Source: Escherichia phage Pride
DNA: 44,899 bases
Strand: one strand, 5' to 3'
Sequence record: KX534341.1
Positions 5,565 to 37,843 of the stretch are shown in pieces. Both the position numbers and the translations under genes were made by a program. Below the pieces are notes generated by a model. That model was not told where the DNA came from. It was given only the letters and a program-made list of their open reading frames with translations, and did no database searches. Every line of letters starts with the position of its first letter. The first letter of the stretch is position 1.

Positions 5565-5624
5565 TTTGGCGCAATTCTGCGCGTGCTGTATCATTAAACC
5601 GTATATCTAAACAGGAGCTTTATT

Positions 5625-6350
5625 ATGGGTTATCAACTCCCCAACGGGTCCAGCGTCCAGATCGGGTCCGTATTAGGCAGCGGCATCGCTGTTACGGCAG
5701 CTACCAACGCCACCGCATCAATCTCTGACCTTACGCAAGGTTGCGTAATTACCTGCGCGGCATCGCATGGCCTGGTTGTTGGCGACGTTGTTATGTTCAC
5801 TAAAACCCCGTGGGTCCGAGCGCTTAACCGCGCATTCATCGTGGGTAAAGTAGCCGAGAACGACGTGACGCTGGCGCGCTTCGACTCCTCTGACGTCACA
5901 AAATACCCGACCGGCGCTTTCAGCGTAGGCACTCCGGGCGAAGTGGTGAAGGTGTCGAGCTTTATCGACTTCCCTTTCATTACTAACGTTGCCGTGTCGG
6001 GTGGCGACCAGCAGACTACTACCTTCCAGCCGTTGCAGGTGAACACCGCAATCAGTCTTAACACCACGAAAAACCCGTTGGTACAGACTTACACCTTCAC
6101 CCACGACGAAGAAGACCCGATCCGCCCAATCCTGGAAGACCTGGACGACACACAGAAAACCACTGTGATCAAGTTCACTAACCCAGCGGCAGCAAGTGGC
6201 AAAGGTGAAATTCGTATTTACCCGGCTAAGGTATCTTTCCAGAAGATTCCTTCCGCTGAAGTAAACAACGTGGAAACGGTACAGTCTACTCTGACCATGC
6301 AGTCTGATATGGTTATCTACCGTAAGGATCTGGTCGAGGCATTGTCTTAA
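5625..6350 (+). CDS. Major tail protein (putative)
   Basis: 241-aa ORF with AGGAG RBS, followed by terminator and then chaperone G/GT and tape measure (conserved siphovirus order). Confidence 0.6.
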   Translation: MGYQLPNGSSVQIGSVLGSGIAVTAATNATASISDLTQGCVITCAASHGLVVGDVVMFTKTPWVRALNRAFIVGKVAENDVTLARFDSSDVTKYPTGAFSVGTPGEVVKVSSFIDFPFITNVAVSGGDQQTTTFQPLQVNTAISLNTTKNPLVQTYTFTHDEEDPIRPILEDLDDTQKTTVIKFTNPAAASGKGEIRIYPAKVSFQKIPSAEVNNVETVQSTLTMQSDMVIYRKDLVEALS

Positions 6351-6380
6351 TTTGGTCGCTTAAATAGCGAGTGTTAATAT

Positions 6381-6403
6381 GGGGCCAGCACGGCCCCTTT
6401 TTT
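6381..6403 (+). terminator. Intrinsic terminator (ggggcc-agcac-ggcccc-tttttt) after major tail gene
   Basis: GC stem followed by T6. Confidence 0.6.
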
Positions 6404-6419
6404 ATTGGAGAATACTACA

Positions 6420-6782
6420 ATGGCTAAAGCACCACTCTTCACTCTTGACCCTAAGCCGACCTTTAAGCTGCCGATTGAGATCCCGCGCCCTGGTGAGAAC
6501 GAACCCGGCAAGATGACGTTTACCGTCCGTCACCGCCCGATCGACGAATTTTCGCAGACCATGCAGGACACCGAACGCAAGCTGTCGGAATATGACGACA
6601 ATGACCCGGACGGCTTTAACGTTATGGTCGAGGCCATCATGCACGTCGCAGAAGGCTGGAATCTGCCAGACGAATTTAACGCGGAGAACGTCCGCCGCCT
6701 GGTGGTCAACTATCCTCGCGCGTTCGGTGTGTTCCATACGTCGTACTATCTCGAACTGATGGGCTTGCGTGAAAAAAACTAA
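6420..6782 (+). CDS. Tail assembly chaperone (lambda G-like)
   Basis: Acidic ~120-aa ORF directly upstream of the tape measure gene; ends at a slippery site followed by an open -1 frame. Confidence 0.7.
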   Translation: MAKAPLFTLDPKPTFKLPIEIPRPGENEPGKMTFTVRHRPIDEFSQTMQDTERKLSEYDDNDPDGFNVMVEAIMHVAEGWNLPDEFNAENVRRLVVNYPRAFGVFHTSYYLELMGLREKN

Positions 6783-7099
6783 TTGAGGCGGCGCGACGCT
6801 TTTATGGCCCGCCGCCACCCTCCGAAGATTTAGCCGCAAGTTTATGGGGTGCGTCCCCCGAAGATGTTTGTCCGCCTGTTGCGTTATGGCCTGACAACGC
6901 GAAGATAGTCGCAGTATTCACGGATTGTGCCACGCAATGGCGCACCGGATTTGGTGGCGCATACGGCATCGATTACGGCGTGCTGGAGTGGTTATTTAAG
7001 ATGCACGGTATCGAAAACGAGCAGCGCGCGTTTAAAGATATCAAGCTAATGGAACGAATCGCGCTTGATGAAATGGCGCAGCAGAACCACGCACAGTGA
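6420..7099 (+). CDS. Tail assembly chaperone frameshift product (lambda GT-like), made by -1 ribosomal slippage at A AAA AAC (6773..6779)
   Basis: The -1 frame is closed by a TGA at 6770..6772 and then open for 107 codons from 6779 to TGA 7097..7099 with no start codon of its own; slippery heptamer sits at the 0-frame stop. Confidence 0.7.
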
Positions 7100-7100
7100 A

Positions 7101-7425
7101 GCGGGACAAAGCGGGATGTCCCGTTTTGTCCCGCCTCTGTAAAACTGCATATCTAATCACTCCCATTGCATAAACCAAAAGAGGGACAGGCGGGACGTCC
7201 CGTTTTGTCCCACCCCATAAATGTGCATATCTATTCGCATTTCGTGCATAAAACAAACGGGACAAAAAGCGGGACAGACCAGGGGCGGGACAAAGCGGGA
7301 CAGCACCCCGTCCCCGCCAGTGCTGCCGCTGGTTTCAGCCGATCGGGACAGCGGGACAGCACCCCAGTCTTTCAGACTAGACGGGGGTCTGGCACCCCCC
7401 TCGTCTGAGACTGCATAGGGTTTGT
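7101..7425. repeat. GGGACA-array element, copy A: palindromic GGGACA sites (7101..7133, 7183..7211), duplicated TGCATA..GGGACA module, four direct GCGGGACA repeats (7259..7302), two more (7345..7358) and a conserved GC hairpin
   Basis: Direct reading; about 165 bp (7256..7413) aligns with 35432..35590 at roughly 85-90 percent identity. Confidence 0.8.
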
Positions 7426-7481
7426 TTGAAATTCGCTGATACAATGTCAATCGGCAACTGAATAAAAAAGGGGACTGCATA

Positions 7482-10124
7482 ATGGCAGATCAGGCAGCAG
7501 GCATCACGCTAAAGGCGGATGTTGCACAAATCAGAACGGCGAATACTGTGCTTGATTCATTCGCACAGAAATCCGAGAACACAGAAAACAAGGTTAAGAA
7601 ATTAAACGACACCCTCGGCAAATCCAAAAAGGTGACGAGTGACGCCGCGGGCGGAATGGAGAAGCTGGCGACTGAATCGCAGCGCGCTGCCGATGGCATG
7701 ACGAAACAGGAGCGACTTGCCAACAGGTTAGGCATGTCGACCAAAAACCTGGGCTTTGCCTCGCGTAACGCCGCATTCCAGTTACAGGATATCGCAGTTA
7801 CGCTTGAGATGGGGATGCCGGTACACCGCGTTATGCTTCAGCAGTTACCGCAGTTAACTGGGGCGTTCGGGGGATTGGGTAACACGCTGCGTTATGTGGC
7901 GGGATTCCTCGGCCCAGTAGGGATCGGCATTGCCGCACTAACGGCAACGTTAGGCGTCGGCGTGGCAGTTACGACCCGAGCAGAAAACCAGGTCGCAGCG
8001 CTTAACAAGACGCTGGCGCTGTCGGGTAACATTTCCGGCCTCACCGCTAACCAGATCCTTGTGCTGTCTGAGAACGCTGAGCGCATGGGCTGGTCATTCC
8101 GCAAGACGCGAGACACCATTCAGGCACTGGCGGCGGCGGGCGTTAAAGCGGGTGCGGACTTCGGCGCGCTGGCGAAAGTGGTGAATGACTTTGCGAAGGC
8201 GTCTAATCAGCCGATCTCTGACGTGGTTGAATCCATCTCAAAATTGTCGAACGACCCGGTCGGTGGACTGCGCGCACTGGCGGACCAGTATCACGTCGTT
8301 ACCGAGGCGCAGATCCAGCAGGTGCAATCACTAGTGACGGCTGGTCGAGAAACCGAAGCGGTGGCGCTGGCGAACAAAACCGCCGCTGCGTCGTTCTCCA
8401 GCATGACCAATGAGATCAAGTCCAACATGGGTACGCTCGAGCGGTCTATGAACGTCGTCACATCTGCAGCCAAATCCATGTGGGACGCCATCCTGGATGT
8501 AGGACGCGCGCAGTCATCGAATGAGTCCGAGATGAAAGCGCGTGAATCCTTGCAGCGCATGACCACGGCTTACTATGCCGAGATGAAAGCGGTAAACGCT
8601 GCCGGTGGGGTGATGACCGAGGCGCAGAAAGCGCGTATTAACATGCTTTACAGCGAACTGGTCGCCCAGGAAAAGGTGGTGGCGTCGCTCACCCTGCGCA
8701 ACCGCGCCGAGCGAGACAACGCCAGCGCCGCTGACGAAGCAGCAAAGGCGAACGAGGAGGCAAACCGCACCGCCCGCGACCGCGCCGCGTTTGAGAAGGA
8801 GTACGCAACCAACGCGAAGCGGCGAGCCGACGAGATCGCCCGCCTCAATTTGCTGAATAAGCGCGGTGTTATTAACGAGAAAGAACTAGCCGAGGCGGTG
8901 AAGCAGGTCAACGAGCGCTACAAAGACCCAGCACCGAAAAAGGCGGCGGCAATTCGAGTCGATGCCGGGCTGAAAATGCTGGAAGTCGCGCGAAGCGAAT
9001 TAGCCCAGCTTCGTGAGTCTGGAAAGCAGATCGAAGCCAACGCATCGACGCAGACCCGCACGCAACGCGCGCAAGCGGCCCTTAACAAGCTGATCGCGGA
9101 CCATGAACAGTTAATCGCGGCGAGCAAAGAAAGGGCGCTGACGGCAGCAGAAAAGCAGCAAATGGCGGAGTTCGAGTCGGTTAAATCGGTACGCGAGCAG
9201 ATCGTCGAAGAAGCCAAATTGCTGGACGCGAAAGAGAAGCAGATCAAGGCACACGCCCAGGTCGAAGCATTCATCAAGAACCAGAACGCCGAGCTAAAAG
9301 CCACCGCGGCGGGCTATGCGCTTTCTACTCGCGAAGCGGCTAACCTGCGCGAAGAGTTGCAGCTAATTGACCGCCTTCAGCGTGCCGGTGCTAACGATAC
9401 TGATATTGACAAGGCGGTGTATAAGCTGCGTGAGGTTCAGGAAGCACAGACCGGTGCTAACGCCTCATTATGGGATGGATTCAGTCGCGGGCTTCGCGAT
9501 AGTGTGGATGAAATGGGTAACGGATACACGCAGATGTCGTCACTCACAAAATTCACGTTCGGTGCTATGCAGGACACGATGAACGAGTTTTTCGAGACTG
9601 GCAAGCTGAACGCAAAAGATATGGTTAAGTCCATTCTGAGCGAATTAATAAAGCTGGCTACCTCGCAGGCGTTCAAGTCCATCGTTAGCGCTTTCGGTGG
9701 CGACGGCGGCAAAAACGGATTGTTCGGCGCTATCTTCTCGGGCCTCACTAAGAATGCGGACGGCGGAGCGTACACCGGAGGCAATCTCGCGGCCTATTCG
9801 GGGCAAGTGGTGAGCCAGCCTACCTTTTTCAGTTATGGCGTCCAGGCGTTCGCTAAGGGCGCTGGGTTGATGGGTGAGGCTGGACCCGAGGCCATCATGC
9901 CACTGAAGCGCGGGCCGGACGGGAAACTGGGCGTTGCCGCGTCTGGCGCAGGCGGTGGTATGGTCGTGACGACTAACGTTTACACGGGGACCGGTAAGAC
10001 GGATACCAGTGTTGGCGGGCCGGACCCACGTACCGCGCAGGCGTTCGGCAAGCAAATCACCGAGGCGGTGAAGGCCGAGATCGTGAAGGCGATGAAACCG
10101 GGTGGTGTACTTTACAAACGATGA
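7482..10124 (+). CDS. Tape measure protein
   Basis: 880-aa ORF rich in A/Q/K/E coiled-coil-like sequence, between G/GT chaperone and tail-tip genes; AAGGGGA RBS. Confidence 0.85.
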   Translation: MADQAAGITLKADVAQIRTANTVLDSFAQKSENTENKVKKLNDTLGKSKKVTSDAAGGMEKLATESQRAADGMTKQERLANRLGMSTKNLGFASRNAAFQLQDIAVTLEMGMPVHRVMLQQLPQLTGAFGGLGNTLRYVAGFLGPVGIGIAALTATLGVGVAVTTRAENQVAALNKTLALSGNISGLTANQILVLSENAERMGWSFRKTRDTIQALAAAGVKAGADFGALAKVVNDFAKASNQPISDVVESISKLSNDPVGGLRALADQYHVVTEAQIQQVQSLVTAGRETEAVALANKTAAASFSSMTNEIKSNMGTLERSMNVVTSAAKSMWDAILDVGRAQSSNESEMKARESLQRMTTAYYAEMKAVNAAGGVMTEAQKARINMLYSELVAQEKVVASLTLRNRAERDNASAADEAAKANEEANRTARDRAAFEKEYATNAKRRADEIARLNLLNKRGVINEKELAEAVKQVNERYKDPAPKKAAAIRVDAGLKMLEVARSELAQLRESGKQIEANASTQTRTQRAQAALNKLIADHEQLIAASKERALTAAEKQQMAEFESVKSVREQIVEEAKLLDAKEKQIKAHAQVEAFIKNQNAELKATAAGYALSTREAANLREELQLIDRLQRAGANDTDIDKAVYKLREVQEAQTGANASLWDGFSRGLRDSVDEMGNGYTQMSSLTKFTFGAMQDTMNEFFETGKLNAKDMVKSILSELIKLATSQAFKSIVSAFGGDGGKNGLFGAIFSGLTKNADGGAYTGGNLAAYSGQVVSQPTFFSYGVQAFAKGAGLMGEAGPEAIMPLKRGPDGKLGVAASGAGGGMVVTTNVYTGTGKTDTSVGGPDPRTAQAFGKQITEAVKAEIVKAMKPGGVLYKR

Positions 10125-10158
10125 TAAAATGGCCCTCACTACAACGTGGGGGCTTTTT

Positions 10159-10758
10159 ATGTCACAAGGTACAATCACACTAACGAAAGGAAGTAAGACC
10201 GTCACGGGCGCGGGAACGGCGTTCCTTAGCGAGATCGGGAAGGTACTCGTATTCGCCCGCATCGACGGCAACGACTACACCGGCAAAATTGCGGCATTCA
10301 ACTCGAACACGGTCATTACTCTGAAAGATAACTGGGCTGGGCCAACGAAATCCGGTGCGGCATATGAGCTAATCGAAGCACACGACCCGCGATCAAACGA
10401 ATGGCCATATTACTGGCACATGCAATTGCAGGGCGGTGGCGACGTGCAGTTAGCTTTCCGGTCGGAGGAATTGCAATTCGGTAATGGCTACGGACAGAAC
10501 ATCGCGGACGGCCCGAACGCCGAAACGAAACAGTTCCCCGTGCAATTCGTCGGGCTGACTACGGACAAATGGTGCAATCCTAAACTGGTTTACAACTTCC
10601 TTCGCGGTCACTTCGTAAAACCGTTTGTCGTCACCGCGCCGGATGGCGAAACAGGTTTATTCGTGGTCGAGCGTTCGAGCTTGTCGTACACGGACAACGG
10701 GCACTACACGGCAACGGTATCCGCCACCCTTAAGACTGCTATTGGATTCGTAAGATGA
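10159..10758 (+). CDS. Minor tail protein (lambda M-like, with N-terminal extension)
   Basis: First gene after tape measure; ATG 10159 with GGGGG RBS preferred over 10102/10129; gene order M-L-K-I-J. Confidence 0.55.
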   Translation: MSQGTITLTKGSKTVTGAGTAFLSEIGKVLVFARIDGNDYTGKIAAFNSNTVITLKDNWAGPTKSGAAYELIEAHDPRSNEWPYYWHMQLQGGGDVQLAFRSEELQFGNGYGQNIADGPNAETKQFPVQFVGLTTDKWCNPKLVYNFLRGHFVKPFVVTAPDGETGLFVVERSSLSYTDNGHYTATVSATLKTAIGFVR

Positions 10759-21366: not shown

Positions 21367-21832
21367 GGAGTTCTCCTTCGCTCATTATTTCAATTTGTGC
21401 GCTGCCGGTTGGTGGCGCTTCGTCAAATATTATCAATTGCTGGCACTTGTTATTGCTCGGCCCGACTTCACCGGTGACAGCGTGTATAAATCTCACCCGC
21501 CAGTCCAGAAGAATTATCATATTGGCAGTCTTCCGGGCCAACTTCGCCCACTTCGTCGACGTGTCCTGATTCAGTAGCATGACAGTCCGGCGACCGTGCG
21601 CTGCGCATTCCACCCACGGCAGCGGGTCGGAATACGGCGGATTGCACCACTTCCACCCTTTCAAATCAGCCCAGTCCACATCAAGCGCGCTATGTTCTGC
21701 TGTGAAGTAACGCGGTAGCAGGTGGTTGGCATCGCTTGCCGCCATATCGTAACGGAATCGGTATTTCCGACGAAGCGGTTTGAATAAAGCTGGCGGCGTG
21801 CGCCAGCTATCTTTTTGCTCACTCTTCTGCAT
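21347..21832 (-). CDS. DNA N6-adenine methyltransferase (phage Dam-like)
   Basis: NPPY catalytic motif (WCNPPYS) and N-terminal SWRTPP region typical of the small phage Dam family as recalled from memory. Confidence 0.65.
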   Translation of the reverse strand: MQKSEQKDSWRTPPALFKPLRRKYRFRYDMAASDANHLLPRYFTAEHSALDVDWADLKGWKWCNPPYSDPLPWVECAAHGRRTVMLLNQDTSTKWAKLARKTANMIILLDWRVRFIHAVTGEVGPSNNKCQQLIIFDEAPPTGSAQIEIMSEGELLEYLNR

Positions 21833-22283
21833 GACCTGGATCTATCGCGTATAAAGGGACTTTATTGCCGGTTTTCATAACGCGCTGGACGCGCTTTGAC
21901 TCCTCGGCGCTCATTGGGCGCATATCAGTGCTATAACCACCGTTTGATGTGTGCCGCCACGCTATCAGCACCAGATCTTTCCGGTCGATCTTAGACTGGC
22001 GGCCCTTCGGTCGCACGTACGCCTCGGCCCGTTTGCAATGCTCGCGCAGACCTTCGGCAGTGATGCGGTTTAGCGCGACGGTGGTTGTGTACCCGGTGCG
22101 CTGCATAATACCCATCAACCCATACAGCAGTTCGAAGCGCTCCTCTAACTCCTTGCGCATCTTTTCCTCGCCTTCATAGCTCGCCAGGTAGGTATCCGCC
22201 AGCGCGTTCGCCCGTTCGACCTGTTCGCGGGCTTCGAGGCATTGCGCGGCCCAGTAATTTTTCTCTTCTTGTAAAATTTTCAT
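21819..22283 (-). CDS. Hypothetical protein
   Basis: ORF with promoter of ATTGGTTGCA class upstream. Confidence 0.6.
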   Translation of the reverse strand: MKILQEEKNYWAAQCLEAREQVERANALADTYLASYEGEEKMRKELEERFELLYGLMGIMQRTGYTTTVALNRITAEGLREHCKRAEAYVRPKGRQSKIDRKDLVLIAWRHTSNGGYSTDMRPMSAEESKRVQRVMKTGNKVPLYAIDPGHAEE

Positions 22284-35273: not shown

Positions 35274-35410
35274 AATTTGCGCGCATTGGTCGCCGATATG
35301 GGGATTCCCATATCGCTAGACGATTAAATTTTGCGCGCATTGGTTGCCATTTTGAGTGTTTTTATCTGGTCGTATTGGTTGCCGTGTAGTGTGAATATAG
35401 TGAATAGTTA

Positions 35411-35592
35411 TGCAGTTTTATTGCATAAAGTAAGCGGGACAAAAAGCGGGACAAACAAGGGGCGGGACAAAGCGGGACAGCACCCCCGTCCCGCCACGGA
35501 TGGCGCGGCTTCCAGAGGAGCGGGACAGCGGGACAGCACCCCAGTCTTTCAGACTAGACGGGGGTCAATGGCCCCCCTCGTCTGAGACTGAA
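35411..35592. repeat. GGGACA-array element, copy B (homologous to 7256..7413), preceded by direct repeats TTGCGCGCATTGGT(C/T)GCC at 35271..35294 and 35325..35350
   Basis: Four GCGGGACA direct repeats, GGGACAGCGGGACAGCACCCCAGTCTTTCAGACTAGACGGGGG...CCCCCCTCGTCTGAGACTG conserved in both copies. Confidence 0.8.
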
Positions 35593-35749
35593 TAAAATCC
35601 GGGGATTGCAAAATACACGGCAGCATGATGCTAAGTGCGGTCGTCGATGAACTAGGCAACCAATGCAGGTTGTATTATGCTGAGTGAAAATGCGGTTTGC
35701 AGTCACAGCAGATAGCGATCAACTTTTTCATGCGCGTGATTAATATTGG

Positions 35750-37517: not shown

Positions 37518-37552
37518 AGTCCCAGTGAGCTAAAACTTACTGGGACTTTTTT
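37518..37552 (+). terminator. Terminator-like hairpin (agtcccagtgag-ctaaaa-cttactgggact) plus T5, ending 1 nt before the holin ATG
   Basis: 12-bp stem with one mismatch, then ttttt directly abutting ATG 37553. Confidence 0.5.
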
Positions 37553-37843
37553 ATGGATAAGCTAAACGAGTGGTTATTCGCCCTTGCGTGTCTTGCTGGT
37601 GGCTTCGTAGGCGCACGCATTCATGGCGAGGCAACGAAAGGGCCGCTAAACTTCGTGTTATATATCGTAGTTGGCTTCCTGTGTGCCATCTTTGGTGCGC
37701 CAGCTATCGCCGAGTGGGCTGGCTTATCTGGCGAGCGCACTGTCGCCGGTTTGGGCTTCGTAACTGCAATCTTCTGGATGCCAATCGCCGACCGGGTCAG
37801 GGGGACTATTGCGTCGTTCCGACTTCCGGGGGGTGCAAAATGA
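37553..37843 (+). CDS. Putative holin (three predicted TM segments)
   Basis: Three hydrophobic segments; immediately upstream of endolysin; no alternative in-frame start after the stop at 37526. Confidence 0.6.
   Translation: MDKLNEWLFALACLAGGFVGARIHGEATKGPLNFVLYIVVGFLCAIFGAPAIAEWAGLSGERTVAGLGFVTAIFWMPIADRVRGTIASFRLPGGAK

Follow-up and report, generated by a model that had tools for sequence, protein, structure and literature searches.

Gene order and protein families at the locus

The DNA analysed here, a 44,899-nt stretch from Escherichia phage Pride (KX534341.1) that is referred to below as the window, is a Dhillonvirus. Its region 5600-10200, which carries the locus of interest, matches Escherichia phage Gluttony and phage Lust at 100% identity. 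Altogether 158 records were matched, and over the same interval the other Dhillonvirus (HK578-like) ones, among them HK578, SSL-2009a and Sodalis phage SO-1, show 80-95% identity. The genes and signals of the locus are all on the + strand.

The gene for the major tail (tube) protein occupies 5625-6350 (Pfam Phage_tail_3, E 5e-32; phrog_584, major tail protein, E 1e-73), and its counterpart in the Gluttony record is likewise labelled major tail protein. Behind it, at 6381-6405, a terminator scan detected an intrinsic-terminator-like hairpin, GGGGCC-AGCAC-GGCCCC followed by a T run (T6); the record of vB_Eco_CS16 has a terminator annotated at the matching position. This hairpin may lower expression of the downstream chaperone genes relative to the tube protein, and it could in this way set a high ratio of tube protein to chaperone.

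The tail assembly chaperone ORF, here called G, encodes 120 amino acids in what is taken as the 0 frame and lies at 6420-6782. It starts with the ATG at 6420, which has GGAGA 8 nt upstream; an alternative upstream start, the TTG at 6405, appears in the ORF list. G belongs to the Pfam family Phage_TAC_4 (PF08748; E 1.4e-23, 83.9 bits against a gathering cutoff of 21.1), with residues 1-120 aligned to profile positions 1-124 of 124, and also matches phrog_569 (E 1e-40). Its 0 frame ends ...CTG ATG GGC TTG CGT GAA AAA AAC TAA TTG AGG CGG, so that a slippery heptamer A AAA AAC, of the form X XXY YYZ and in 0-frame phase, is found at 6773-6779 and is abutted by the TAA stop at 6780-6782, which may act as a pause element. 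Both the end of the chaperone ORF at 6782, right after this heptamer, and the closing of the -1 frame by the TGA at 6770-6772 had been proposed from the sequence alone, and both are borne out.

From that TGA onward the -1 frame stays open for 108 sense codons (6773-7096), as far as a second TGA at 7097-7099; 106 of these codons (6779-7096) would be read after a shift. The original prediction gave an open stretch of 107 codons ending at 7099: the end point was right, while the count falls between the two figures just given and matches neither. It also held that this frame has no start codon of its own. Taken literally that is incorrect, in that start codons do occur; none of them is usable, however, the first canonical one being the GTG at 6980, which leaves only 39 amino acids and cuts the conserved domain described next. 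The downstream segment, here called T (6779-7099, 106 codons plus the stop), matches DUF1799 (PF08809; E 1.2e-20, 74 bits against a cutoff of 26), with T residues 23-99 covering profile positions 1-80 of 80, and phrog_680 (E 1e-30). The two ORFs thus overlap where G ends, the downstream one being in the -1 frame and without initiation signals of its own, and the shared stretch contains an X XXY YYZ heptamer phased to the upstream frame. T would be read only as a C-terminal extension of G: a canonical tandem shift gives a predicted product of 226 amino acids, GT, with the junction ...GLREKN-LIEAARRF..., precisely as originally put forward. G and T also fit one family profile, in order, as a single 213-position profile, phrog_17368, is matched by both halves: by G at positions 1-107 and by T at 150-212.

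Just past the T stop a repeat search found an inverted repeat with 19-nt arms that are 89% complementary (7098-7137), recorded as a rho-independent terminator in the HK578 record. The next gene, at 7482-10124, encodes the tape measure protein (Pfam TMP_2, E 3e-43, and Tape_meas_lam_C, E 2e-13; phrog_24, E 6e-183), the presumed client of G and GT. Both ORFs thus lie between the tube gene and the tape measure gene.

The 380-nt non-coding gap from the T stop to the tape measure start (7100-7481) is dense in the motif CGGGACA, which occurs in both orientations, nine times in this gap and a further six times at 35435-35535 (within 35395-35600); the window as a whole contains 18, against 6.5 expected, a number matched by 0 of 100 shuffles. 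About 165 nt of the gap (roughly 7250-7410) are nearly duplicated at roughly 35425-35590, including a hairpin-like element, CAGTCTTTCAGACTAGACGGGGGTC...CCCCCCTCGTCTGAGACTG, whose arms are identical in the two copies and whose loop differs between them. The pair corresponds to the 'region A / region B' repeat_region of the SO-1 record. ORFs drawn across the gap gave no PHROG match, and no Rfam family was matched there. The repeats may be a promoter module, or one that binds a regulator, in front of two operons. In one relative whose G is about 60% identical to that of Pride (L011, 4700-4885), a repeat-rich non-coding stretch also lies right past T, this time with the motif GGTGCCA / TGGCACC; given that locus, the repeat array would be a conserved feature, its sequence co-varying with a phage-specific factor.

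Conservation of the slip site and of the -1 frame

Related loci were compared at two depths. The close set consists of 26 unique sequences, comprising the Dhillonviruses and three relatives whose G is about 60% identical. Every one of the 26 keeps the segment GAAAAAAAC T[AG]A, with the heptamer identical in all, and has an open -1 frame of 105-107 codons. Variable columns in T are distributed over -1 codon phases 1, 2 and 3 as 51, 38 and 93 of 105 each (chi-square p 1e-14), a pattern that mirrors that of G in its own frame (52, 40 and 104; chi-square p 2e-18). Variation biased in this way toward third positions shows that the -1 frame is translated and is under purifying selection at the protein level. 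A downstream frame interrupted or non-conserved in close relatives, together with the absence of a fusion peptide, had been named at the outset as what would count against a fusion; what is seen is a frame that is open in every one of them and changes in the manner of a coding sequence.

The wider set consists of 23 distinct lineages: besides the window and 14 prophages, it takes in five loci from metagenomes or genomes and the three relatives at about 60% identity in G, with locus L026 counted among the 23. The prophages are from Pantoea, Lelliottia, Leminorella, Janthinobacterium, Steroidobacter, Pseudomonas (four), Variovorax, Paraburkholderia (two), a Burkholderiales MAG and a MAG labelled Chitinophaga. 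They come from a profile search of genome contigs with a narrow T alignment, which gave 15 matches, of which 14 were kept; the remaining one (L049) was discarded as a spurious short match. Identity in this set falls to about 20-35% for G (A5) and to about 30-40% for T (A2). Throughout this divergence the heptamer is present in 23 of 23 lineages, as A AAA AAC in 14 and as G GGA AAC in nine; a 0-frame stop follows it immediately in all 23, with zero intervening bases; and the DUF1799 ORF is always in the -1 frame, which is open in 22 of 22 distant relatives. The comparison with homologous loci that had been suggested as a check thus gave a slip site of the form X XXA AAC and the same relative frame in every lineage, and the arrangement is conserved despite sequence divergence, with the downstream frame under coding selection.

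Codon choice at the slip site departs from that in the rest of the same ORFs. As descriptive counts over 23 lineages that are non-independent, Gly at the nine G-class sites is GGA in 9 of 9, vs 4.7% of Gly codons elsewhere; all 14 A-class sites have a codon ending in A ahead of Lys (GAA, CAA, AGA, ACA, GCA), vs 17% elsewhere, and Lys itself is AAA in 14 of 14, vs 53%; and Asn is AAC in all 23, vs 79%. Judging from these patterns, selection at the slip site acts on nucleotides and amino acids alike. The combination of X XXA AAC with a direct stop and DUF1799 in the -1 frame is, on the same comparative footing, a simple and reliable annotation signature for the TAC_4/DUF1799 chaperone family.

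Protein-level searches see the two halves mostly apart. An exhaustive HMMER search with the fusion returned 1110 proteins at E <=0.001, almost all of them either G-like or T-like. A protein homologue search found only two relatives of G with the fusion as query and only HK578 gp16 with T, and a scan of viral contigs with the G alignment recovered almost solely near-identical Dhillonviruses. One protein of 206 amino acids (P0010; locus L030, 173-793) carries TAC_4 and DUF1799 in one frame, and has neither a slip site nor the ELxGxRxKN tail. Either an assembly artefact or a naturally occurring in-frame fusion could account for it; it comes from an 811-nt contig with 2.6x coverage, and with the slip site absent it was dropped as strong evidence for a fusion.

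Reading of the T frame and its possible stimulators

By itself the raw pattern of a heptamer followed by an open frame does not exceed chance. An open run of 106 codons arose in 153 of 20,000 shuffles of the region (about 0.8%), and its probability from the window-wide stop-codon frequency is 2.6%. An X XXY YYZ heptamer inside a -1 overlap is found in 10 of the 126 long stop-to-stop frames of the window, and three of those 10, the G/T locus included, have a -1 extension of at least 80 codons. The significance of the G/T finding therefore comes from homology and conservation. The other two such frames, at 37529-37843 (+) and at 21508-22215 in reverse-complement coordinates, have extensions of 81 and 107 codons, and are most likely ordinary overlapping neighbour genes.

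Position, the TAC_4 and DUF1799 assignments, phrog_17368, the conserved slip site and the purifying selection on T together support the G/GT arrangement ahead of a tape measure gene that was originally proposed. The preferred reading, to which we assign a probability of about 90%, is a low-efficiency -1 ribosomal frameshift that yields a 226-amino-acid GT fusion, as in the lambda G/GT system. Most ribosomes translating 6420-6782 would terminate at the TAA at 6780 and release the 120-amino-acid chaperone G. A minority would slip back by one base on A AAA AAC (6773-6779) and go on to read the -1 frame over 6779-7096, giving GT, with DUF1799 at its C-terminus. On the analogy of phage lambda, the tape measure protein would then be coated by G in many copies and by GT in few; the T domain, from its position and the same analogy, would recruit the major tail protein and so start polymerisation of the tube, and neither G nor GT would be expected to stay in the virion. 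A literature search found no proteomic or reporter data on GT for Pride or any Dhillonvirus.

The same fusion could in principle be reached in the transcript, if the polymerase stuttered on the run of seven A residues at 6772-6778 and added one more; normal translation would then give ...REKK-LIEA.... Such a run is indeed present in the window's lineage, a one-base insertion would bring T into frame, and A-rich heptamers recur at frame transitions, the two mechanisms being reviewed together (PMC5009743, PMC3711429). Against this, nine of the 23 lineages have G GGA AAC, with just three consecutive A residues and the tRNA re-pairing pattern kept, and the phase and the terminal C of the heptamer are invariant, though both would be irrelevant to a slipping polymerase. 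Productive transcriptional slippage in bacteria usually takes place on runs of 9 or more. Because G GGA AAC offers no homopolymer run, slippage by the ribosome is favoured over slippage by the polymerase across the family, and transcriptional slippage as the general explanation is very improbable; a small contribution from polymerase stuttering on the A7 run of the window is possible.

Translation of T alone, by coupling or re-initiation at the ATT at 6782 or at an internal start and with no fusion made, is no better placed and is likewise considered highly unlikely. It has the deposited annotation of two phages in its favour, gp16 of HK578 (L004, 983-1297) and of SO-1 (L005, 983-1297) being entered as stand-alone CDSs that begin with the ATT at the last base of the G stop, and some relatives have a called ATG that gives a T ORF of 90 amino acids (L009). 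Across the lineages, however, no conserved start codon is found at the 5' end of T: the codon at the 6782 position, that following the Leu, is ATT, ATC, ATA, GTC, ACA, AGA, AAG, ACG or ACC, and is not kept as a start codon of any kind. There is no Shine-Dalgarno sequence in GCGTGAAAAAAAC, and initiation at the first canonical start, GTG 6980, would remove most of DUF1799. Separate initiation would also leave unexplained the invariance of the heptamer, of its phase and of its synonymous positions. Moreover, distant relatives share, at the protein level, the residues L-I/x-x-A-A...Y right past the slip site. Where gene callers have extended T ORFs upstream, the resulting proteins read ...CAKKKLVEAARR..., ...CRKKLIAAAE..., ...PEGKLIEAV... 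and ...QAGKLTEAA..., in which the ...KKL... or ...GKL... represents the -1 reading of the slip site. In the HK578 and SO-1 records the ATT-start gp16 looks like an annotation artefact of a missed frameshift.

That the open -1 frame is a by-product of high GC content or a decayed remnant, with nothing translated past 6782, is barely credible: a run of this length in about 0.8-2.6% of nulls and the chance occurrence elsewhere in the window of heptamers with extensions would allow it, and the comparative data (a DUF1799 domain at E 1e-20, third-position-biased substitutions at p 1e-14, a frame open in all 26 close and all 22 distant relatives) already refute it.

For the -1 ribosomal frameshift, the likely stimulators would be the stop abutting the heptamer and a GC-rich hairpin 7 nt downstream of it (6787-6816), found by RNA folding, whose stem would pair GGCGGCG (6787-6793) with CGCCGCC (6810-6816). 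In the window this hairpin is indistinguishable from those of shuffled sequence (z 0.37 over 88 nt, z -0.6 over 58 nt). Averaged over the 23 lineages, the 58 nt past the heptamer have a free energy of -21.5 kcal/mol and a z of -0.86, the lowest of 9 offsets (Mann-Whitney p 0.04). Many lineages have a hairpin that begins 4-8 nt downstream and differs in sequence and in the residues encoded, such as one of 13 bp in L033 and others of about 12-16 bp in L041 and L044; about a third of the lineages have no such hairpin or a weak one. The stem overlaps the conserved Glu-Ala-Ala and Pro-Pro codons. In the close relatives it is practically invariant, with a single G-C to G-U change, so that there are no compensatory changes to score. 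A role for the downstream hairpin as frameshift stimulator is plausible, the comparisons being suggestive only. No Rfam family was matched in a search across the whole window. An upstream stimulator resembling a Shine-Dalgarno sequence was considered and dropped, there being nothing convincing 8-14 nt upstream of the heptamer.

Partly on the background of work on stop codons 3' of shift sites, we infer that the abutting stop stimulates slippage in Pride by presenting a slow-to-decode A site. A bolder proposal, offered tentatively and as one that we consider rather unlikely to hold, is that throughout the TAC_4/DUF1799 family X XXA AAC with its abutting stop (23 of 23 lineages, several proteobacterial orders) may form a distinct mechanistic class, in which slow recognition of the A-site stop by release factors, competing with -1 re-pairing of the tRNAs, would be the main driver of the shift, and in which the ratio of GT to G would be tuned by the release-factor activity or growth state of the host and not by downstream RNA structure.

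Annotation and relation to known systems

None of the 10 distinct Dhillonvirus genomes inspected (Gluttony, UDS3lw, SECphi18, HK578, SO-1, Kenya-K19, EE09, Opt212, CS16 and LM40P1, the last a record without any annotation) has a joined CDS for GT. These records lack the T region, break it up into spurious small ORFs, label it a DUF1799 fragment or start it at an ATT; HK578 gp16 stands in the protein database as 104 amino acids beginning with M (P0153). In the lambda RefSeq record, too, T is a separate CDS. The Pride locus is thus of a known kind, a G/GT frameshift that is so far unannotated in the inspected Dhillonvirus records, and the main value of the finding is for annotation; understanding of the mechanism is unchanged by it. 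With correct annotation these genomes gain one more essential protein of tail assembly, 226 amino acids long. This matters for phage engineering and for studies of defence systems by which tail assembly chaperones are sensed; the work on Avs17 mentions long and short chaperone isoforms.

IS1 has its frameshift site at an A6C sequence. The frameshift sites of E. coli dnaX and of IS elements resemble that of Pride in being heptamers rich in Lys codons that are read by the same E. coli tRNAs, and A_AAA_AAC is a recognised though weak shift site in E. coli (PMC5009743), being far less prone to shift there than A_AAA_AAG. The dnaX signal differs: its heptamer is the much more efficient A AAA AAG, accompanied by a Shine-Dalgarno-like element upstream and by a strong hairpin, whereas no such upstream element is evident in Pride, and the biological purposes of the dnaX and IS sites are unrelated to the frameshift of tail chaperones. 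HK97-like chaperone frameshift genes shift with an efficiency of 6-7% in reporters (PMC3711429).

The G/GT frameshift is conserved in long-tailed phages (Xu, Hendrix and Duda 2004, as cited in PMC3025963 and PMC5009743). The related Edwardsiella phage eiAU is a siphovirus, several of whose ORFs have their best hits in the Dhillonvirus Sodalis phage SO-1 and in enterobacterial phages (PMC3025963). Its ORF22 and ORF23 lie between the tape measure and major tail genes, and its authors pointed out the conserved frameshift there (PMC3025963); the likeness to Pride is one of position and frameshift, that paper giving no slip-site sequence. In gp12/gp13 of Acinetobacter phage vB_AbaS_Loki, a phage of another host that is likened to Pride by its signal architecture, a predicted frameshift has AAAAAAC directly beside the chaperone stop, the same architecture as in Pride (PMC5313236).

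A further parallel is phage lambda (Levin 1993; Xu, Hendrix and Duda 2004, 2013, 2014, as cited in PMC5009743 and PMC3025963). Like Pride, it has two overlapping ORFs between the major tail and tape measure genes, the second of them in the -1 frame, with an X XXY YYZ heptamer close to where G ends, and in both a short and an extended chaperone are expected. The ratio of G to GT in lambda is about 30:1 (PMC5009743), and since GT is required there at low abundance, a weak heptamer such as A_AAA_AAC would fit a low yield of GT in Pride. The two loci also differ in several ways. Lambda T overlaps H directly, while in Pride the 380 nt of repeat-rich non-coding DNA separate T from the tape measure gene. 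The lambda proteins belong to other Pfam families, G to Phage_TAC_2 (PF06894) and T to Phage_tail_T (PF06223), whereas the Pride proteins match only Phage_TAC_4 and DUF1799 in Pfam, and an hhalign comparison of the DUF1799 alignment with lambda T gave a probability of 1.9%, with no detectable similarity. Finally, the lambda heptamer is G GGA AAG and has five sense codons between it and the G stop, whereas A AAA AAC in Pride is adjacent to its stop; set against this five-codon gap, the invariance of the abutting stop marks it as a feature of the TAC_4/DUF1799 family. As the lambda families are not matched, the Pride locus would work in the manner of lambda G/GT while belonging to different sequence families.
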